Shown: positions 2,504 through 44,669 of the stretch, in pieces
How the letters are laid out: every line of letters begins with the position of its first letter
Position numbering within the stretch: position 1 is the stretch's first letter
IMG/VR virus record: IMGVR_UViG_3300023296_001674
DNA: 64,000 bases
Source of the DNA: a virus
Direction: 5' to 3' (one strand)
Made by a program: the position numbers and the translations under genes
Notes under the pieces: generated by a model
Database searches by the model: none
Told to the model about the DNA's origin: nothing
What the model saw: the letters and a program-made list of their open reading frames with translations, nothing else

Positions 2504-2556
2504 TACAAATCCTTTCAGTGGGGATAGTATAGAACCATCCCCACTGATGTCAAGGG

Positions 2557-5002: not shown

Positions 5003-6511
5003 ATGCAAATACCAGAAATCACACTTTCAACGCAGCAAGTTAATATTCTTGATTGGGTTAAATCAGGAAAAGGTAATGTCATTATCGAAGCTGTAGCTGG
5101 CAGTGGTAAGACCTTCACATTGGTTGAAGCCGTTAAGTTGATGGTAGGCACTGTATTCCTTGGTGCTTATAACTCTGCTATGGGTTATGAGTTGAAGGAA
5201 AAAACCAAGGGCATGAAAAATGTTCGGGCTGGCACGTTCCATAGTGCAGGCTTTGGCGCACTTCAATATCGTTACGGAAAAATGCAAGTTGATGCTAACA
5301 AAGTGCGAGATATCGTTAATGGTATGGCGGAGGGCGACGACTTGTTTGCTGTATACGGCAACTTCATTAACAAGATGGTAGCACTTGCCAAGGATTCCGG
5401 CATTGGGTTCTTTAATAAAATTAACGACCCTATCATGTGGAATGAACTTGTTGATAAGCACGACCTTATGGATCAACTCGACGAACACTTAACAGTTGAT
5501 GTTGGTATTCAGTTATCAATGGACGTCTTAAAGGCATCTAACTCTAATCTTAAAGTTATTGATTTTAGTGATATGATTTATCTTGTATTGTTAAACAACC
5601 TCCGCCTTTTCCAACAAGATTGGGTTTTGGTTGACGAAGCCCAAGATACCAATAGCACGCGACGCGCACTGGCAAAGAAAATGTTAAAACCCGGTGGGCG
5701 TTTGATCGCGGTTGGTGATCCTCGCCAAGCAATCTTTGGCTTCACTGGTGCTGATTCCGATGCGCTGGACTTGATCTCCAAGGACTTCGGTACAACGACG
5801 CTTCCTTTGACTAGCACGTTCCGTTGCCCTAAATCGGTTGTTAAACACGCCCAACAATGGGTATCACACATTGAAGCGTATGATACTAATATCGAAGGCG
5901 AAGTTATCAACGCTAAATTCGACGACGTGTTCGGTGAAAAATCCGAATATAAGTTTACCGGTTCCGATGCAATCATTTGCCGCCTTAACGCGCCTATCGT
6001 TGAACTTGCATTCAAGTTGATTCGTAAGGGTGTTCCTTGCCGCATTGAAGGTAGAGATATCGGCACACAACTTGCAGCACTTGCAAACAAGTGGAAAGTA
6101 GTCCGCCTTGACGCCTTACGCAATCGCCTTGAGAAGTATAAGGAACGTGAAGTATCTAAGGCTATGGCAAAAGGGCAAGAACAGAAAGCCGGTAGCATTA
6201 CTGACCGCGTGGGCTGCCTTAATGTTCTTATCGAACGCGCCGAAGAAAAGAAACTTGACGTTGCTGGTTTGATTGTAATGATCAAGGGCATGTTTTCAGA
6301 CGCCCAAGATAAAACCACAAATAAGAACATTTTGGTTTTATCATCCGTTCATAAATCAAAAGGTAAAGAATGGCCTAGAGTGTTCTTGTTAGGACGCCAA
6401 GAAAATATGCCAAGTCCTTTTGCTAGACAGACATGGCAACTTTTACAAGAGGATAACCTTATCTACGTTGCTGTAACGAGGGCGATGGAAACGTTAATCG
6501 AAGTGGATTAA
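5003..6511 (+). CDS. SF1 UvrD/PcrA-like DNA helicase
   Basis: AVAGSGKTFTL (Walker A), VDEAQDTN, GDPRQAIFGFTGA, TFRCP, VLSSVHKSKGKEWPRVFL. Confidence 0.8.
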   Translation: MQIPEITLSTQQVNILDWVKSGKGNVIIEAVAGSGKTFTLVEAVKLMVGTVFLGAYNSAMGYELKEKTKGMKNVRAGTFHSAGFGALQYRYGKMQVDANKVRDIVNGMAEGDDLFAVYGNFINKMVALAKDSGIGFFNKINDPIMWNELVDKHDLMDQLDEHLTVDVGIQLSMDVLKASNSNLKVIDFSDMIYLVLLNNLRLFQQDWVLVDEAQDTNSTRRALAKKMLKPGGRLIAVGDPRQAIFGFTGADSDALDLISKDFGTTTLPLTSTFRCPKSVVKHAQQWVSHIEAYDTNIEGEVINAKFDDVFGEKSEYKFTGSDAIICRLNAPIVELAFKLIRKGVPCRIEGRDIGTQLAALANKWKVVRLDALRNRLEKYKEREVSKAMAKGQEQKAGSITDRVGCLNVLIERAEEKKLDVAGLIVMIKGMFSDAQDKTTNKNILVLSSVHKSKGKEWPRVFLLGRQENMPSPFARQTWQLLQEDNLIYVAVTRAMETLIEVD

Positions 6512-9672: not shown

Positions 9673-9723
9673 CTAATCTTTAATCATTCGGTGCGATACT
9701 TCTTTATGAAAGGAGTATCGCAC

Positions 9724-9879
9724 ATGATTGATTTTTTATTATACTATTCACTTGGTGGGGTTGTTTGGTGTGTATGGACTGAAGTTCTACACCGGAAAGG
9801 ATTCTTAGCCAGACTAGGGTTGATTGTATTCATCCCTTTTGTTGCAATCACTTTAATGTTGGAATCAATACGAAATTAG
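9724..9879 (+). CDS. small membrane protein
   Basis: Track ORF trimmed to ATG after aaaggag; hydrophobic. Confidence 0.45.
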   Translation: MIDFLLYYSLGGVVWCVWTEVLHRKGFLARLGLIVFIPFVAITLMLESIRN

Positions 9880-10775: not shown

Positions 10776-10941
10776 TCAATTAAAAAGGGAAGCAGAAATG
10801 CTTCCCTTTTTTTATGCTTGACACTGGTTTAGTTAATTGCTATGTTAAATCGTCGTTGCCCAAGAAAGCGGGTTGATAAAGACTTGACTGACACTACGAA
10901 GTGTTCTATTGATTAATCATAACAACAAAAAGGAACCGAGT

Positions 10942-11301: not shown

Positions 11302-11704
11302 AGCCGTAACGCAATATGAAACATTCGACGGAAAAGTATTCTCCGACGAAAATGCCGCTGAACAATGGGAACGCAATACAAATAAAGCAAACGCAATCAT
11401 ATCGATGTTTCCGAACAACGGTCATCTTTCATCTGGCGATTTCTATCAGTTATCAAGAGATTTGATTAGCACCGCGAGAATTAAACTTGCCGATGCTTTA
11501 ACTCGTGGCGGCTTCGATGACGAAATGATTAAAGCATTTCGTGATAATACCAGCGATGTAATCGGACGCTATCTCGACGACGGCGGTTCAACATATTATA
11601 AAGCATGGTGGTTATTTTCTTGTATTGACAATCAAGGGCGGATGTTCAATCAACCGTTCTTTGCCAATAATCCAAGAGAAATAAGAGATGAAGTTTCCTA
11701 TTGA
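11294..11704 (+). CDS. hypothetical protein
   Basis: ORF track; overlaps upstream by 8 nt. Confidence 0.55.
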   Translation: MPKAVTQYETFDGKVFSDENAAEQWERNTNKANAIISMFPNNGHLSSGDFYQLSRDLISTARIKLADALTRGGFDDEMIKAFRDNTSDVIGRYLDDGGSTYYKAWWLFSCIDNQGRMFNQPFFANNPREIRDEVSY

Positions 11705-12435
11705 TTCTTCCAATCATTTTCCCATATCGTGACAAGATTATAGCCGTGAGATTTAATAAGAGTCTCACGGTTCATAGTCTTTTGATATAACTCGCCGAAT
11801 GATTTTTTATTATTGGTGTTGATATGTTCGGGATTGTGTGTATTAGGATTCCCATGCCAATAATCACCATAGAACTCATATATGGTATTTGTGTCAGGGT
11901 CATAACCGTCTGGATATATCCATTGATTATTTAATATTAAAGTTCGTCGCCTATAATCATTTGTATCAGGTAATCCAATATGATCAAGCCACGATTTTTC
12001 CATATATGATTTATTCTGTATAGTTAATGGTCGCAACATAATGGCGCACTTATTACATCCATGATTTAAATGTGCTGATGGTTCTTGTTGAAATATTCCA
12101 TGTTCAGGGCAAATGATATTCACCTTTGTATGCGTGTTATGATAATCAACTAATGAATAATTATATTTATCGCCATGTTTTATCAACGATTTTTGTATAA
12201 ATTTTAATGTAGTTCCCCGTATTTTATCTGAATTATTTTTTATTGCACATTTAATACAGCCTTTTCCACTACTAGTGTGCGAACAAGGCGTCTGTTCAAA
12301 TATTCCATGAGTTGTGCATATTATTTTAACTTTGGTATGGGCGGCAATATATATAGACAATGAATAGTCATATCTATCACCATGAATGGCGATAGCATCT
12401 TGAATGAATTTTGAGGTAGTTTTTCTTCTTGACAT
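11698..12435 (-). CDS. homing-endonuclease-like protein (paralog of 6537..7271)
   Basis: MSRRKTTSKFIQDAIAIHGDRYDYSL..KVKIICTTHGIFEQTP..GKGCIKCA, second repeat, C-terminus YEFYGDYWHGNP. Confidence 0.65.
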   Translation of the reverse strand: MSRRKTTSKFIQDAIAIHGDRYDYSLSIYIAAHTKVKIICTTHGIFEQTPCSHTSSGKGCIKCAIKNNSDKIRGTTLKFIQKSLIKHGDKYNYSLVDYHNTHTKVNIICPEHGIFQQEPSAHLNHGCNKCAIMLRPLTIQNKSYMEKSWLDHIGLPDTNDYRRRTLILNNQWIYPDGYDPDTNTIYEFYGDYWHGNPNTHNPEHINTNNKKSFGELYQKTMNRETLIKSHGYNLVTIWENDWKNQ

Positions 12436-12616
12436 GTGATATCCTTCCGGTTATAAATACATTGGCGGTAGGACTTACCTTCCGGTGTCCATGTGATACA
12501 TACTTGAAATATGTATCACACCGCTCCTATCTATTTATCTTTTTTATTATTAAAACCCTTGACAATGATGGATGTTTGCTTTATATCTAAATCAACTTTA
12601 ATGAAAAGGAATTATT

Positions 12617-13462
12617 ATGAAACTCATAGCGATTAATGCAGATATCACCACGTTGGAAGTTGATTGTATCGTAAATGCATCTAATCCAGCACTAATGCAT
12701 GGCGGTGGGGTATGCGGTGCAATATTTGAAGCCAGTGGCGCAAATGAACTTGCGGGATTTATTGCGCAGAACTATGGGCTAGGATGCTTAACAGGGCAAG
12801 TAGTTGTGACTCCGGGGTTCAACCTACCGGCGAAGTTCATCTTGCACACTGTCGGGCCTGATATGCGCCTATATGCACAAGAAGCGGGTGATACATTGTT
12901 GCAGTTATGTTATATCAACTGTATTGAGGCGGCATTCGATGAAGGGTTGACTTCTATTGCCTTCCCTGCTATCAGTACTGGAATCTTTGGATTTGATAAA
13001 AAACGTGCTGCTACGATTGCAGTTACTACATTGATGGACTACAGTGGTAGCGAAGATATCGAAATTACCTTTGCTTGCTTTGGCGATGAAGATACCGCAA
13101 TAGTTCAAGCCGCGATTGATGATGAAGATGCATCACGGCATTATCTATCATGGTCAATGTATAATGAACAATACGATATTGATTCGGCGGCTGGAAAGTG
13201 TGACATTGAAGGCGATTGGGAAGTGTTATACGCTGACTTATCTACGGATGTTCCTACTGGCATTTACATGGTATCAACAACCTATGATGGCAACCTCGGT
13301 GTAGCGAAAGGCGTTGTTATCAATGATGGTGTATTCGATATCGACCAAACCCTACGCGCTTGTGCGGTTGCCCGTAACAATGCAGGATATTGGGGAACTT
13401 TTCTTGAAGGATTGGATTGGAATAGCGAAACCGAAGAATTTACAGCACACTTCGGTTCTTAA
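12617..13462 (+). CDS. macro-domain (ADP-ribose-binding/processing) protein with unknown C-terminal domain
   Basis: VDCIVNASNPALMHGGGVCGAIFEASG macro signature; promoter TTGACA-N17-TTATAT ~12557-12586. Confidence 0.7.
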   Translation: MKLIAINADITTLEVDCIVNASNPALMHGGGVCGAIFEASGANELAGFIAQNYGLGCLTGQVVVTPGFNLPAKFILHTVGPDMRLYAQEAGDTLLQLCYINCIEAAFDEGLTSIAFPAISTGIFGFDKKRAATIAVTTLMDYSGSEDIEITFACFGDEDTAIVQAAIDDEDASRHYLSWSMYNEQYDIDSAAGKCDIEGDWEVLYADLSTDVPTGIYMVSTTYDGNLGVAKGVVINDGVFDIDQTLRACAVARNNAGYWGTFLEGLDWNSETEEFTAHFGS

Positions 13463-13520
13463 CACTTGACATCATCGATTAAGTGTTCTATGGTTCACTT
13501 AACAACGAAAGGATAATACA

Positions 13521-13763
13521 ATGTCGGAAATTCGCCACAAAGTAACATTCATGCATGAGGTAGATGGAAAAGACGAACCCTTGACCGTGATGTATGTTTA
13601 TCGTATTCCACAACTCAACGAAATTGTAGTTATGTTGGATTCGAAAATTCGATATCGGGTTCTTGAGGTTCTTAATATTATTGATGATCGAAACATCGAT
13701 TTTAAAAAAGATTATATAACGATGTGTGAAATCGAATATTTCATCAAAGTGTCTTGGAAATAA
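13521..13763 (+). CDS. hypothetical protein
   Basis: ORF track; own promoter; RBS aaaggat. Confidence 0.55.
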   Translation: MSEIRHKVTFMHEVDGKDEPLTVMYVYRIPQLNEIVVMLDSKIRYRVLEVLNIIDDRNIDFKKDYITMCEIEYFIKVSWK

Positions 13764-13808
13764 TATACAAAGCCTTGACTCTATTATCTAATAGTGTTAA
13801 ATAACATC

Positions 13809-14096
13809 ATGGAACTAAACGACCTCCCATCGGTTGCAGCAATGCACCAACACAAGAACCCCGATCAGAAACGGAATGAACGTCGTATGCAGGAATTTAT
13901 AACTGACGATATGATACACCCCGACGAGCCAGCACCACAACATAGGTCGCCTTCGTTGTTGAATGACACCGCCTCGACAGTTGTGTTCGAGGCTGGCATT
14001 GATACACCGCAAATGAGCCGCGATTGTATCATTGCTATATATGAAAAAATATTGGGTGGCAATCCAGAAACTGAACTTAAAAATCTTTTTGCTTGA
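13809..14096 (+). CDS. hypothetical protein
   Basis: Track ORF trimmed; promoter TTGACT ~13776. Confidence 0.45.
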   Translation: MELNDLPSVAAMHQHKNPDQKRNERRMQEFITDDMIHPDEPAPQHRSPSLLNDTASTVVFEAGIDTPQMSRDCIIAIYEKILGGNPETELKNLFA

Positions 14097-18091: not shown

Positions 18092-18177
18092 GTGTGTCAT
18101 AAATGACACAGGTGTGATATAATTATCACACATTGAAAACTGCCTCGATTGGTGGTGTATTCATACCGATAAAAAAA

Positions 18178-18212
18178 GATAAGTCAACCTAAAATAATGG
18201 TTGACTTATCTA
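18178..18212. repeat. perfect 13-bp inverted repeat (hairpin) flanking E-element copy 3
   Basis: aaaaaaAGATAAGTCAACCtaaaataatGGTTGACTTATCT; right arm supplies the -35 TTGACT of the E promoter; would be a minus-strand terminator (stem + U7). Confidence 0.5.
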
Positions 18213-18789: not shown

Positions 18790-18849
18790 TGTGTTGACTC
18801 TGGTTTGATTGTTCTTTATAACTTAATAATCAAACCAAGGAGAGATACA

Positions 18850-19050
18850 ATGTTAGTTCAATTATCCGGTAAAACAAACCACGGCAAAAACCGTATTCGT
18901 GAACATGGTTCGAGTTGGATGGTTCAAGACCTTCCGACTGGTGTAATATCAGCAAACCCAATGCCTACCCGCAAAACCCTAGTGTCTGTTTTAACAGGCG
19001 CGGAACGTTGGGTGAGTATGACAAACGATAAAGATTTTATTATCGCTTGA
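18850..19050 (+). CDS. hypothetical protein
   Basis: Track ORF trimmed; palindromic promoter cassette G3 ~18795-18840; RBS aaggag. Confidence 0.5.
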   Translation: MLVQLSGKTNHGKNRIREHGSSWMVQDLPTGVISANPMPTRKTLVSVLTGAERWVSMTNDKDFIIA

Positions 19051-19109
19051 CTCTGATTCGATTGTTCTTTATAACTGAATAATCAAAACAACCCCGAAGG
19101 ATTAAGCAA

Positions 19110-21250: not shown

Positions 21251-21511
21251 ATGAAATTCATATATAAAGATTTAACAGTTTGCGATTTCGATGCGATGTG
21301 TGATATGTTCGCGTCAAACTGCGAAGTGGTCGATTACGTTTATTATGACGGCGAATACGTTGTCGGTGATATCACCGGTATAACAAGTGACCGCCGTTTC
21401 GTGTTAAGTGTGGATGGCGTTGGAACTGAATTGTATTCTAATGCTGGCACGATGTTCGCCGTTGAAGATTATGGTTCTGAAATGCAGGTTCGTATTATTT
21501 CTATAAAATAA
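21251..21511 (+). CDS. hypothetical protein
   Basis: ORF track; promoter TTGACA ~21190. Confidence 0.55.
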   Translation: MKFIYKDLTVCDFDAMCDMFASNCEVVDYVYYDGEYVVGDITGITSDRRFVLSVDGVGTELYSNAGTMFAVEDYGSEMQVRIISIK

Positions 21512-21570
21512 CTGTTGACTCTGGTGTAGTTAGTTCGTATATTAACTACACCAGAACAAAGGAACTGAAT

Positions 21571-21786
21571 ATGCAAAACGCAATCGAACAAGCGACGCAC
21601 CTCGGAATTCAATCATTTAACTCGGGCGAGTCGCTTGTGCCATTCCGCAATAATTCATTGATGGATTTGCTGGAAACACAACGAAATCGCTCATGGGATT
21701 GCACCCCGATTTTAACTGCATATCAAAACGGATTCATAACCGCGCAACAATCTGCGCCCGTACCGGAGGAATTGTTAGTTGCGTAA
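21571..21786 (+). CDS. hypothetical protein
   Basis: ORF track; palindromic promoter cassette G2 ~21516-21555. Confidence 0.55.
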   Translation: MQNAIEQATHLGIQSFNSGESLVPFRNNSLMDLLETQRNRSWDCTPILTAYQNGFITAQQSAPVPEELLVA

Positions 21787-22278: not shown

Positions 22279-22348
22279 TAACTGTTGACAATGGTGTAGT
22301 TATATCGTATAACTACATCAACGTTTAACCACTTAAAGGATTTCAATC

Positions 22349-24629: not shown

Positions 24630-24743
24630 TAAATAGGGTGAAAGTTCAGTTAGACCTAGTTCAAGTAGCCCGAACATTATAAAGATGAATAATTCTTAAA
24701 CAAACATAAAGGGAAACACCGGAATGATTCCGGTGTTTTTTTG
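24630..24743 (+). ncRNA. candidate ~114-nt plus-strand small RNA
   Basis: TTGACA-N17-TATAGT (24595-24623) then no ORF beyond 4 codons, ending at hairpin aacaccggaatgattccggtgtt+T7 (24716-24743). Confidence 0.3.
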
Positions 24744-25327: not shown

Positions 25328-25382
25328 AGTGATCAAAGAGGTTACATTTATGTAACCTCTTTGACTAACTTAAAATAGTTCT

Positions 25383-25428: not shown

Positions 25429-25577
25429 CGTTTTTTATGGCGCAAGATTATTACAAAATTAAGTGAAACAAAGTAATAAAATAATGCATTATTCGGTTGA
25501 CCATGTTACAGTTATTTGCTATATTTAAATTGTTCCAAGGCACTAACGCCTAACACAGATTGAAAGGGAACCACAAA

Positions 25578-26054: not shown

Positions 26055-26069
26055 CCGATTCATACAAGG

Positions 26070-26104
26070 AAAAGAAAGTCAAGAGAAATCTTGACTTTCT
26101 TTTC
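26070..26104 (+). terminator. rho-independent terminator (repeated hairpin type containing TTGAC)
   Basis: gAAAGTCAAGAgaaaTCTTGACTTTCttttcg; same core hairpin at 27834-27872. Confidence 0.6.
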
Positions 26105-26201: not shown

Positions 26202-26292
26202 CACTTAATTTATTTTTATTTAGGGGGTTGACTCATCTGATGCCTACCTTTATAACTACAAATAGAAACCAACCACATAAGGAATTGCCCAC

Positions 26293-26677: not shown

Positions 26678-26790
26678 GATTTTATCATCAAAATTTATTT
26701 TAATAATAGTGCATTTAGGGGGTTGACTCATCTGATGCCTACCTTTATAACTACAAATAGAAACCAACCACAACCCCGAAGGAACTTATC

Positions 26791-27821: not shown

Positions 27822-27833
27822 GCACAAGGAAAA

Positions 27834-27872
27834 AGGAGAGTCAAGAGAAATCTTGACTTTTCTTTTTTTATT
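27834..27872 (+). terminator. rho-independent terminator (second copy of TTGAC-containing hairpin)
   Basis: ggAGAGTCAAGAgaaaTCTTGACTtttcttttttt. Confidence 0.6.
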
Positions 27873-29310: not shown

Positions 29311-29370
29311 GTCTTGACTCTGGTGTAGTTAGTTCGTATATTAACTACACCAGAACAAAGGAACAAACAA

Positions 29371-29511
29371 ATGTCAAACGCTGAAATGTATCTCGATTGG
29401 GTTAACAATTTTTTAACTGTTGCACGGTTCGCCGAATATTACAATATCTCCGAGACCGAAGCTCTTGCCGTGATCGAAAAAGGTCGCATCGACCACCACG
29501 CAAATCTGTAA
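29371..29511 (+). CDS. small protein (46 aa)
   Basis: Not in track; palindromic G2 promoter 29313-29357 (identical to 21516); RBS caaaggaacaaacaa-ATG. Confidence 0.4.
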   Translation: MSNAEMYLDWVNNFLTVARFAEYYNISETEALAVIEKGRIDHHANL

Positions 29512-29829: not shown

Positions 29830-29895
29830 TAAACCCTTGACTCTGATTCAGTTATTCTTTATAACTGAATAATCAGAACAACGAAAGAAAATCCA

Positions 29896-30253: not shown

Positions 30254-30282
30254 TAAAAACAACAGCCGGAGTCACTTAGGTG

Positions 30283-30329
30283 TTGACTCCGGCATTTTTC
30301 CTGCTAATATACTATCAGGGAGGGATGAG
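30283..30329 (+). repeat. E-element copy 11, plus orientation (its -35 lies in the upstream terminator stem)
   Basis: CCGGAGTCActtaggtgTTGACTCCGGcatttttcctgctAATATActaTCAGGGAGGGATGAG. Confidence 0.6.
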
Positions 30330-31029: not shown

Positions 31030-31060
31030 CCCTTGACTCTGGTGTAATTGATAAGTATAA

Positions 31061-31363
31061 TTGATTACACCAGAACAAAAGGAATTTAACATGGATAAAC
31101 GCGATGTGATTGTAATTTGCGTTGGCAGTGCCGCCGATGATATACGCGCACTTAATCACGCAACAAACTCCGCAGTTCTAGTCGTTGAAGATAAACCCGC
31201 AATTCACGAAATGGCATTGATGGATGATATATTTTTAACCGATGAAGCAAAAGATATGTTTGTGCTTGAATTAATCGAAGACGCGTTGCCAAAGAATTTT
31301 CTAAGTGAACCAAAACCCCGAAAGGCTTGGAAAAACGAATTCGAAAATCTAGGTCGTAAATAA
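31061..31363 (+). CDS. hypothetical acidic protein
   Basis: ORF track; palindromic promoter 31033-31078. Confidence 0.55.
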   Translation: MITPEQKEFNMDKRDVIVICVGSAADDIRALNHATNSAVLVVEDKPAIHEMALMDDIFLTDEAKDMFVLELIEDALPKNFLSEPKPRKAWKNEFENLGRK

Positions 31364-31387
31364 ATCAAAACCAGAGTCACTTAGGTG

Positions 31388-31434
31388 TTGACTCTGGATT
31401 TCTTTCTGCTATTATACTGTCAGGGAGGGATGAC
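31388..31434 (+). repeat. E-element copy 12, plus orientation
   Basis: CCAGAGTCActtaggtgTTGACTCTGGatttctttctgctATTATActgTCAGGGAGGGATGAC. Confidence 0.6.
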
Positions 31435-31672: not shown

Positions 31673-32593
31673 ATGGCAAAAGCAACCCGCACCAAAATCG
31701 ATCATGAGCAACAAATCACTAACGCTATTGTCGCCCACGTTGAAGGGTATATCGCCGCCGAGGCTACAGGCGAAGAGATCGCACGTTGGGAAAGCCCCTT
31801 CGGAAAATTCTTCCGTGAAGGCCATTTTTGCGCCGCAACCGATAACCAGTATAAAGGCTGGACTAACAATTTTTTCCTTACACTTATGGCGCACGCAAGC
31901 GGATTCAATTCCGATGCATGGGGAACATTCAAGCAATGGAAAAGCATGGGAACGGATGAAACACCCGTATCTGTTAAGCATGGTCAAAAAGGTTCCGCTT
32001 GGATTGCTTTTCCATATATCAACAAAGATAAAGTAACCGGCGACGACACCGTAACCGGATTCGGATATCGCGCCGTATTCAATGCCGATCAAATCGAAGG
32101 ATATACGCCCGAGGTTGTTGAACTACCAGAGTCGCAGGTTGTGCAACATGCCAAAGCTGAAACATTCTTGAAAAATCTGGACGTAACATTCCAGCATATC
32201 GGAAACCGCGCTTTCTATAGCCCTGCTAGTGATGCAATCAGCATGCCCCCAGAAGGCGCGTTTAAGGCGACTGAATACAGTACCGCAACCGAAGGCTACT
32301 ATGGCACCAAGTTTCATGAATACGCCCACGCAACCCTGCACGCTAGCCGGTGCAATCGCGAACAAGGCGCGGATAAAGCTTCATACGCTTTCGAAGAGTT
32401 GGTCGCCGAATTGACCTCGACTATCCTATGTTCGCGCTTTGGTATATCCGCACAACCACGCGAAGACCACGCTAAGTATATACATTCATGGTTGAAAGCA
32501 CTGAAAAGCGACAAGACCATGATTATGAAGGCAATGAAGAAAGCAAGCCAAGCAATCGCTTGGATGGATAAAAAGCAACCAACATCAAAATAA
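31673..32593 (+). CDS. ArdC-like protein (DUF1738-type ssDNA-binding N-domain + zincin HExxH metallopeptidase-like C-domain)
   Basis: ASGFNSDAWGTFKQWKSMG..KGSAWIAF ; FHEYAHATLH (HExxH); track ORF 31625 trimmed; promoter TTGACT..TATACT ~31615-31644. Confidence 0.5.
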   Translation: MAKATRTKIDHEQQITNAIVAHVEGYIAAEATGEEIARWESPFGKFFREGHFCAATDNQYKGWTNNFFLTLMAHASGFNSDAWGTFKQWKSMGTDETPVSVKHGQKGSAWIAFPYINKDKVTGDDTVTGFGYRAVFNADQIEGYTPEVVELPESQVVQHAKAETFLKNLDVTFQHIGNRAFYSPASDAISMPPEGAFKATEYSTATEGYYGTKFHEYAHATLHASRCNREQGADKASYAFEELVAELTSTILCSRFGISAQPREDHAKYIHSWLKALKSDKTMIMKAMKKASQAIAWMDKKQPTSK

Positions 32594-32654
32594 AAGGTTG
32601 ACAGTAAGGATATGATATCGTATTATATCCTTACTGAAACGAAAGGAACACACA

Positions 32655-32756: not shown

Positions 32757-32807
32757 CGCCAGAACCGAGTCAAGCACTTATTTCACGGTGTTGCACTTAT
32801 GACACAG

Positions 32808-32855
32808 TCAAGTCTTTTATTATAAAATAAAAATAAAAAAAGACTTGACATTCGA
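32808..32855. repeat. 13-bp perfect inverted repeat with AT-only loop
   Basis: GTCAAGTCTTTTTattataaaataaaaataAAAAAGACTTGAC. Confidence 0.55.
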
Positions 32856-32939
32856 AAAAAAGAGTGCTCGTGCAGTGTTTTGAAGTTTTTTATTTAATGG
32901 ATACCTTACCCTTAGCTCGAAATACGCCAAAATTTTTCA

Positions 32940-33075
32940 GGCTAAATCGGAACTCTGGCTATCGTGACACTTATCGTGACAAAATGTCGCGATACCATTA
33001 TAATGGGTCATTTATTCATCCTATCGTGACATTTGACCCATTATAATGGGTCAATACACCCCCCACCCCCTTTTC
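32940..33075. repeat. cluster of short repeats and palindromes at early-region/AT-island boundary
   Basis: TATCGTGACA x3 (one inverted as TGTCGCGATA); palindromic CCCATTATAATGGG x2 (second within 22-bp palindrome TTGACCCATTATAATGGGTCAA); then C6AC5. Confidence 0.55.
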
Positions 33076-33163
33076 TATGAAACACTTATTCATTCAATAT
33101 AAAAAAAATTCTGCGCCAAAATTTTAATAAATAATATTAGGTTTTTAACATAGGAACATTTAA

Positions 33164-44296: not shown

Positions 44297-44590
44297 ATGG
44301 GCAAATTAATAAGTTTTCATGATAATCCAGTAACAAGTTTAAAAAAAGAATTGATCGAAACAGAAGAAAAATTAAAAATTGCCCAACATGAGTTATCGTT
44401 TTTTAAAAGTATATATTCTACAACGCATTCAATTGGTGATTTAATAAAATTGCAGTTGGCGGATTTATCACAAAATGTAATGACGCATCAAGGACATCTT
44501 AAAATGGTTCAAGAAAATATAAATGCAATCAGAGTTAAGTTGGAAAACCTTGAAGAAATGAAGAATAGAGTAAAAATGATTGATGAATAA
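44297..44590 (+). CDS. coiled-coil protein
   Basis: ORF track; terminator ~44596-44628. Confidence 0.5.
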   Translation: MGKLISFHDNPVTSLKKELIETEEKLKIAQHELSFFKSIYSTTHSIGDLIKLQLADLSQNVMTHQGHLKMVQENINAIRVKLENLEEMKNRVKMIDE

Positions 44591-44669
44591 CAAAAAATCC
44601 ACCCTGCGAGGGTGGATTTTTTGTCTCTAATAATAAATAATAGTAGGTTTTTATTTAGAGGAATAAAAA

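Follow-up and report, generated by a model that had tools for sequence, protein, structure and literature searches.

In a 64,000-nucleotide stretch of phage DNA from the IMG/VR virus record IMGVR_UViG_3300023296_001674 (hereafter the window), a subset of the predicted sigma70-type promoters carries an inverted repeat whose left arm lies in the spacer behind the -35 box and whose right arm runs over or past the -10 box. As judged from their layout, these promoter/stem-loop elements are promoter-early stem-loop (PeSL) cassettes, of the kind already described in the T4-type phages RB49/phi1, T4/PST and KVP40/nt-1 (Arbiol et al. 2010, PMC2839356; Comeau et al. 2014, PMC4122927). We consider it reasonably probable that they are composite cassettes in which the hairpin acts on read-through RNA at the boundary between two genes.

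The repeats are far in excess of chance. Indeed, perfect inverted repeats of at least 10 bp, reaching from the spacer to about +6, occur at 7 of 82 promoter-like sites where 0.03 are expected, a null in which the spacer and the downstream bases were shuffled separately and which gave at most one site in 200 shuffles. The longest perfect repeat per promoter is bimodally distributed over the 82 sites, six of them having at least 10 bp and the remainder 7 bp or less; the promoter at 31033 becomes the seventh once loops of up to 15 nt are admitted. Window-wide, 20 perfect repeats of at least 10 bp with a loop of 3-15 nt were counted, the majority of them in contact with a promoter, whereas Markov simulations yielded 1.4. 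Furthermore, when the sites are folded as RNA, the one at 19047 apart, they reach -14 to -28 kcal/mol with z-scores of -3.7 to -7.2.

The register of the repeat with respect to the promoter is fixed, with the left arm beginning 4-9 nt from the first base of the -35 box and the right arm extending to about 15 nt beyond the first base of the -10 box. All the sites reported at the outset have the form TTGAC(A/T)-N17-TAnnn(T/C), which is near-consensus for the sigma70 type, and alignments indicate that the -35 and -10 boxes are kept across orthologs. The stop codon of the upstream gene stands 3-8 nt before the -35 box (at 19047 it overlaps the box), mostly in an A/T-rich context (aaaataactg, aaaataaaagg; less so at 31033), and a Shine-Dalgarno (SD) sequence, AAGGA/AGGAG, is found 5-9 nt 5' of the ATG and 15-35 nt 3' of the right arm. 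Stems of 10-16 bp enclose loops of 3-15 nt, with no conserved bases in either. The promoter at 21515 illustrates this layout: it begins 4 nt past the stop of gene 21251-21511, its 10-nt loop contains most of the -10 box, AACAAAGGAAC with the SD comes next, the ATG is at 21571, and the RNA fold of the stem-loop reaches -23 kcal/mol (z -6.1).

The preliminary description of this DNA had placed such repeats at a series of promoters, where they are present at or within a few bases of the positions given, several being perfect only if G·T pairs are allowed; the promoter assigned to 32589 lies at 32598. It had rightly taken the repeats at 21516 and 29313 as identical, since both have 13-bp perfect arms and a 10-nt loop, the identity spanning about 50 bp from TTGACT through AAAGGAAC in alignment while the flanks and the genes are unrelated. 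The identity claimed for 19048 and 29838 was not found, 19047 being a degenerate or hybrid copy with an 8-pair stem and a weak RNA fold (-7.3 kcal/mol, z -2.6). The idea of a constant architecture with a different stem each time is correct in that the sequences differ, but several of the stems are variants of one spacer family (tGGTnnAGTTA).

Mismatches within the stems were examined for the strand that pairs. Stems were detected by Watson-Crick pairs only, so that G·T and A·C were penalised equally, and internal mismatches were then counted at 261 promoter-like sites from the window and eight related loci, with duplicate cassettes collapsed for the first 215 only. This gave 14 G·T (12 after collapsing one triplicated cassette), 2 A·C and 5 other mismatches, the one-sided binomial probability of 12 versus 2 being about 0.007; the extension of the 31033 stem holds two additional wobble pairs. 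The more distant relatives (loci L116-L118), in which stems are rare, added almost none to this sample. The G·T always sits on the promoter-carrying strand, including at the minus-strand promoters 2553 of the window and 7775 of locus L112, and thus the bias tracks the direction of transcription and not the genome strand. In addition, the sense RNA is stabler than the antisense RNA at 12 of 16 sites. An excess of G·T over A·C is predicted for a hairpin of sense polarity, whether RNA or, less likely, the non-template DNA strand, whereas the two mismatches should be equally frequent in a duplex operator or in a symmetric cruciform.

These expectations bear on two alternatives. Operators for dimeric regulators, be they one or several phage or host repressors, as in control of the LexA, KorA or Arc type, which would shut the promoters off at a set time, are highly improbable: dyad symmetry over the -10 box is the classic operator position and GGTGTA...TACACC is common to four sites, but the outer half-site span varies among these (29, 34, 35 bp) with no fixed geometry, the remaining sites are unrelated in sequence, orthologous sites covary with no recognition sequence kept, and a double-stranded operator predicts no bias of G·T over A·C. 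We also find it unlikely that the repeat is a structural switch at the DNA level, in which a cruciform or a hairpin of the non-template strand under negative supercoiling blocks or assists the open complex, the promoters thereby sensing supercoiling. Such a switch would agree with a repeat centred near -12 that covers exactly the melting region in a register fixed to the -35 and -10 boxes, with its AT-rich centre and with the perfect 13-bp arms at 21515 and 29314, and sense-polarity DNA hairpins tolerate G·T as well. On the other hand, the opposite hairpin of a cruciform would bear A·C, so that the 14:2 bias speaks against a symmetric structure; at several sites extrusion would be costly because of loops of 10-15 nt; sigma70-type boxes indicate the host polymerase, which needs no hairpin; and stems of this family also lie upstream of or over the -35 box, where no effect on melting is expected, both in the window and in the published PeSLs (PMC2839356). 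In the window, among 69 promoter-like sites between 1 and 35 kb, stems reach from the spacer to the -10/+1 region at 10, overlap the -35 box at 9 and lie upstream at 4.

Comparison with related phages provides a second line of evidence. The relatives were reached through a large protein index and contig look-ups, either by an ArdC-like protein 72% identical to that of the window (locus L027) or by a helicase 63-78% identical (loci L110, L112, L113 and L115-L118). The promoter between the SprT-like and HNH genes has orthologs that align straightforwardly (window 2553, L112 7775, L110 7761), and over the three phages its 15-pair helix is 95.5% paired, with five pairs altered on both sides and one position occupied by three different Watson-Crick pairs; as a control, partners slid by 1-3 columns pair at 24-45%. 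Downstream of ardC, the architecture is the same in the window (TTGACAGTAAGGATATGATAtcgTATTATATCCTTACTG) and in L027 (TTGACTCAAGGGGGATTGTatggcACAATCCCCCTAG), and the stem of the L027 ortholog of 32598, AGGGGGATTGT/ACAATCCCCCT, is unrelated in sequence to that of the window. This covariation, together with the sense-strand G·T bias, argues comparatively for selection on the pairing itself.

The pairing thus appears to be maintained where present, and the element to be gained, lost and replaced quickly between relatives. Downstream of the Macro gene, the stem has 13 bp in L110, 10 bp in L112 and is a 7-bp remnant at 13466 in the window; the L027 ortholog of 31033 has no stem and, conversely, the window promoter 24823 is stemless while its counterpart in L027 bears a stem. 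The gene order of the window and L027 is a shuffled mosaic, the available relatives being only about 70% identical and too distant for insertion or deletion junctions to be mapped at the cassettes. This turnover would suit a neutral, DNA-level by-product, in which template switching at quasi-palindromes makes the repeats and the cassettes persist as recombination points (PeSL mini-circles) with no role in expression. Further features in its favor are the identical cassettes of about 50 bp before unrelated genes, the mosaic gene order, the resemblance of 19047 to a hybrid of 18794 and 29837, the crossover mapped in RB49 within the loop of a stem-loop (PMC2839356), and cassettes with direct copies of the spacer, such as L027 7572 (ACTTATTG twice, direct and not inverted). 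However, template switching leaves unexplained the sense-strand G·T at both plus- and minus-strand promoters as well as the concentration of long repeats at promoters in a fixed register, and we give this explanation a slight but real chance. A neutral origin by template switching is plausible as a contributor and is compatible with a role at the RNA level.

The reading that we favor can be formulated as follows. The element would be a single-stranded hairpin of promoter-sense polarity, most probably RNA: in a subset of promoters the spacer bases next to the -35 box are complementary to those between the end of the -10 box and about +6, and the transcript of the upstream gene, holding both arms, would form a stem-loop of 10-16 bp at the gene boundary. 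In sigma70 promoters transcription starts about 7 nt past the -10 box. We infer from this geometry that the start site falls inside the right arm and, therefore, that only RNA from the upstream gene can form the hairpin; the transcript of the embedded promoter would begin within the right arm, without the left one, and be unaffected, and because such transcripts cannot form the hairpin an action on read-through transcripts is favored. The boundary stem-loop may attenuate or end read-through or give a processed, protected 3' end (attenuation or pausing, RNase processing and 3'-end protection are possible effects on the RNA), each ORFan thereby being expressed mainly from its own promoter. The overlap of promoter and stem-loop would keep the intergenic gap at about 60 nt, and the repeated cassettes of about 50 bp probably double as recombination points that shuffle the ORFans. 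Two other functions were considered and rejected, namely bidirectional promoters made by the palindromes (by eye, no mirrored -35 box at the right distance) and sequestration of the SD by the hairpin (the right arm ends at least 6 nt upstream of the SD).

Several points weigh against an action of the hairpin on read-through RNA. The mismatch numbers are small (14 to 2). G·T is the least destabilising mismatch in single-stranded DNA hairpins too, so that a hairpin of the non-template DNA strand is compatible with the bias; deamination of C to T on the non-template strand could contribute to the G·T excess, and quasi-palindromes corrected by template switching can look like compensatory change in the absence of selection. 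The stems are dispensable, as they have decayed at 13466 and 19047, are absent in the L027 ortholog of 31033 and are rare in L116-L118. No stem-bearing promoter site was listed by a terminator scan, and every stem is followed by A-rich sequence (e.g. AACAAAGGAAC, AAACGAAAGG) and not by a U-tract, which makes canonical intrinsic termination unlikely. Ordinary terminators exist elsewhere in the window (10782-10811, 24714-24738), and so the promoter stems may do something different. Finally, promoter activity and start sites are predictions, the phage being uncultured.

As for these ordinary terminators, the one at 10782-10811 shows that the phage also uses them before promoters. None of the four promoters preceded by a canonical terminator has a -10-spanning stem, a hint that terminator and stem are alternative answers to the same problem.

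The preliminary description had argued against a single repressor operator, which agrees with the differing stem sequences and the variable half-site distance, and had proposed instead either a structure-based function or a family of specific regulators. For the latter no fixed half-site or spacing was found. For the former, a hairpin in read-through RNA, as attenuator or processing site, fits best given the G·T bias, the covariation and the PeSL precedent, while the cruciform is disfavored by the A·C mismatches that one of its hairpins would bear. The suggestion that the stem-bearing promoters form a separate temporal class is not borne out: they share their -35 and -10 boxes with their neighbours, orthologs gain or lose the stem, and other promoters have stems elsewhere. 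It is also conceivable, but quite improbable, that the cassette is a two-state device, acting as DNA as a supercoiling-responsive palindrome (extruded or as a non-template-strand hairpin) within a strong promoter and marking, as RNA, the end of the upstream message. If true, a subset of early promoters would be switched off without protein as the topology of the injected genome changes, and promoter-embedded hairpins would be a general regulatory principle of the early regions of giant phages, beyond compact terminators.

Table 1. Predicted promoters with associated stems, and terminators, in the window
Feature	Coordinates	Strand	Details
sigma70-type promoter 21515	21515-21543	+	-35 TTGACT 21515-21520; 17-nt spacer; -10 TATATT 21538-21543
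Stem-loop of promoter 21515	21520-21555	+	Arms TCTGGTGTAGTTA 21520-21532 and TAACTACACCAGA 21543-21555; 13 bp, perfect
Second copy of the 21515 cassette	29314-29354	+	13-bp perfect stem 29319-29331/29342-29354; 10-nt loop; ORFan 29371-29511 downstream
Promoter TTGACT-N17-TATAAT with stem	31033-31074	+	31038-31052/31060-31074; 11 bp perfect (31038-31048/31064-31074), or 15 pairs with tandem U·G/G·U and two A-T pairs; RNA fold -22.3 kcal/mol, z -7.2; gene 31091-31363 downstream
Promoter TTGACA-N17-TATAAC with stem	22285-22320	+	22292-22304/22308-22320; loop TCG; 10 bp perfect, or 13 pairs with one G·T; right arm contains the -10 box
Promoter TTGACT-N17-TATAAC with two-part stem	29837-29876	+	Outer CTGATT/AATCAG, inner ATTCAGTTAT/ATAACTGAAT; 10 bp perfect; outer 6-bp helix beyond a 3-nt bulge
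Promoter with stem	18794-18837	+	18801-18813/18825-18837; 13 pairs including one G·T; 11-nt loop
Degenerate or hybrid copy of the 18794/29837 cassette	19047-19084	+	8-pair stem only, 19060-19067/19077-19084
Promoter TTGACA-N17-TATTAT 3' of the ardC-like gene	32598-32636	+	Stem 32602-32617/32621-32636; loop TCG; 12 bp perfect, or 16 pairs with one G·T
Promoter between SprT-like and HNH genes (beyond the preliminary list)	2515-2553	-	-35 at 2553-2548; stem 2534-2547/2515-2528, 14 pairs, one G·T on the promoter-sense strand; -28 kcal/mol
Promoter 3' of the Macro-domain gene (beyond the preliminary list)	13466-13502	+	7-bp remnant stem 13479-13485/13496-13502
-35-overlapping subclass	18177-18211	+	13-bp stem; right arm contains the -35 box of promoter 18201
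Similar -35-overlapping stem	25333-25364		
Similar -35-overlapping stem	30265-30293		
Similar -35-overlapping stem	31371-31397		
Canonical intrinsic terminator	10782-10811	+	13-bp stem and T-run; directly 5' of promoter 10818
Ordinary T-run terminator	24714-24738		
Ordinary T-run terminator	44590-44624		

The ArdC-like protein of the window (31673-32593) maps to a contig of 570,750 bp, and the source is therefore an uncultured giant phage. Searches of the region against 50,697 phage records by megablast and blastn gave no DNA match, and protein searches of IMG/VR with the ArdC-like protein and a 178-amino-acid ORFan, as well as a JGI metagenome search with the ArdC-like protein, returned distant relatives (at most 42%) or none. 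Besides the ArdC-like protein, the identified genes encode a UvrD-type helicase (5003-6511), whose best phage matches are Brevundimonas siphoviruses (51%), a Macro-domain protein (12617-13462), HNH endonucleases, a SprT-like protein, a tail-fibre-like protein and a carbamoyltransferase; a Phage_T4_rIIB gene is present in the relatives. A tRNA scan of the window gave no match, nor did Rfam 15 above its gathering score anywhere in the window. An exact-motif scan of IMG/VR with TTGACTCTGGTGTAGTTA returned five matches that we attribute to chance, since all lie within coding sequence of unrelated phages.

Between about 3 and 34 kb, the window is a dense array in which nearly all genes are small, on the + strand and without family match; the small genes tested had no PHROG or Pfam match. 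Almost every gene of the array has its own predicted TTGAC(A/T)-N16-18-TAnnnT promoter followed by AAGGA and ATG, which amounts to about 60 promoter cassettes within 3-34 kb. The array is closed by a non-coding stretch of about 400 bp (32760-33160) in which TATCGTGACA occurs three times and the palindrome TGACCCATTATAATGGGTCA twice, along with a C-run CCCCCCACCCCC; just past this stretch the GC content falls from about 40% to about 34%; the orthologous stretch of L027 (11120-11560) is also non-coding and has similar motifs. This stretch could be a replication or regulatory region. L027 carries an insertion that the window does not have (11559-14006), which adjoins the end of the small-gene array and has genes for two proteins with a response-regulator receiver domain and for a Sigma70_r4 protein.

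Other cassettes and signals were noticed in the course of this work. In a second class of cassette, a TTGACT promoter is followed, 5-7 nt past the -10 box, by the invariant motif AGGGAGGGAT(G/A), often with a T-run next (+ strand: 4195, 18235, 25416, 30317, 31422; - strand: 27905, 27241, 26165, 20519, 19621, 8439, 7261). This class is kept in all related phages (named loci L027, L110, L112, L113, L115), and several copies are antisense within the + strand array. Because the open reading frame behind the ATG ranges from 0 to 234 amino acids and some copies have no ATG, the motif is probably not where coding starts but a 5' signal in RNA, whether as small RNA, as a decoy for ribosome binding or as a stabiliser. 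In fourteen cassettes the -10 hexamer reads TATAAC, usually followed by T (4671, 15640, 16282, 18280, 18794, 19047, 21794, 22285, 22889, 26228, 26723, 28123, 28893, 29837); C at the last, normally invariant position of the -10 box is unusual for sigma70 promoters. Identical promoter cassettes of about 55 bp (ggggTTGACTcatctgatgcctaccttTATAACtacaaatagaaaccaaccaca) at 26228-26290 and 26723-26785, 495 bp apart and with different genes behind them, look like a further cassette duplication.

Divergent back-to-back promoters (27343(-)/27370(+), 28107(-)/28123(+), 26069-26104, 27830-27867) have mirrored -35 boxes (AGTCAA...TTGACT) that produce long inverted repeats, two of which are hairpins of 16-19 bp with flanking A/T runs that could be bidirectional terminators too. 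A perfect 11-bp inverted repeat, TGTGATACATA-cttgaaa-TATGTATCACA (12492-12520), occupies a classic operator-like position in the gap that separates the minus-strand gene 11698-12435 from the divergently oriented promoter of the Macro-domain gene. A 10-bp perfect hairpin at 9691-9723, GTGCGATACT...AGTATCGCAC, has the SD in its loop and a right arm abutting the ATG at 9724, and is a candidate translational control element. Finally, the 5' leader ttgttccaaggcaNtaNcgcctaacacagattgaaaggg, found at 25525-25577 in the window and at 3373-3425 in L027, 3' of the orthologous promoters 25497 and L027 3345, holds a small aaggc/gcctt hairpin and is more conserved than the spacers of these promoters.

Among known systems, intrinsic terminators resemble the elements by a stable stem-loop in the transcript directly past a stop codon, but the stems of the window are only moderately GC-rich and lack a U-tract. 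The RNase III sites of the T7 early genes measure about 20 bp, contain an internal loop and lie clear of promoters. They are similarly intergenic hairpins, in polycistronic early transcripts of the host polymerase, and leave the upstream message with a protective stem at its 3' end; the stems of the window differ in having 10-16 bp and in overlapping promoters, and cleavage here is hypothetical. Promoters of the phage N4 virion RNA polymerase, a phage-encoded single-subunit enzyme, have stems of 5-7 bp, 3-nt loops and conserved bases, whereas the stems of the window have 10-16 bp, loops of 3-15 nt, no conserved bases and sigma70 boxes. An engineered promoter of Horwitz and Loeb (1988, Science 241:703) with a palindromic -10 region was reportedly repressed through cruciform extrusion; it is an engineered precedent for the structural switch at the DNA level, as the N4 promoters are a natural one for hairpins in promoters. 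Both this promoter and those of N4 share with the window an inverted repeat in or around the -10 box and the start, the window being distinct in its host sigma70-type boxes and sense-strand mismatch bias.

The closest likeness is with the PeSLs, which are repeated intergenic motifs of hyperplastic, ORFan-rich regions composed of a stop codon in an AT-rich stretch, sigma70 boxes, an SD and an ATG (PMC2839356). The same succession of upstream stop, immediately following sigma70-type -35 and -10 boxes, SD and ATG, with a stem between the boxes or over the -10, is found in the window. Both share G-T pairs in the stems (PMC2839356), absence of a U-tract, many repeats in arrays of small ORFans that differ between relatives, and positional subclasses (upstream of the -35, over the -35, over the -10). 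Intergenic examples from phi1 (EF437941; TTGACATAACAGAGGGTGTATatcataATACACCC and TTGACACCGGATCGGGGATATagcataATATCCCC, more fully TTGACATAACAGAGGGTGTATatcataATACACCCATACC and TTGACACCGGATCGGGGATATagcataATATCCCCATC) have the same layout as the window, with the left arm in the spacer, the -10 box in the loop, the right arm reaching into the start region and no U-tract after it. Sequence homology to the phi1 PeSLs was rejected, since the leader ATCGAAACGA, which looks shared by eye, occurs no more often than by chance (7 matches versus 6.8 expected). The window stems differ by their 10-16 pairs versus 7-8, by a mixed sequence versus a G-run and C-run, and by occupying the spacer in full, beginning at the edge of the -35 box; furthermore, the phage lies on a contig of about 570 kb and has no DNA similarity to the phage collection searched.

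The two papers call these stem-loops terminators or attenuators (PMC2839356, PMC4122927), and the PeSL stem-loop was proposed to attenuate or terminate transcription coming from upstream, one of them having lowered downstream lacZ expression as strongly as rrnB T1 (PMC2839356). PeSL cassettes also recombine with each other (PMC2839356), and PeSLs with other stem sequences are present in further T4-like phages (Comeau et al. 2014, PMC4122927). So far, the literature searched reports PeSL cassettes from no group other than the T4-like myoviruses. New here is a giant phage lineage, apparently not T4-like although relatives carry an rIIB-like gene, that has such cassettes with longer stems of mixed sequence filling the whole spacer; a comparative case for selection of sense-strand pairing also appears to be new. 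The same design in an unrelated-looking lineage of about 570 kb is perhaps a general way of running many small genes in a long row, each from its own promoter; or else cassettes of this kind may move between phages. They mark the plastic, ORFan-rich early region of giant phages, including anti-defence candidates (ArdC-like and Macro-domain genes), and could serve in practice as short, strong, self-insulating expression parts.

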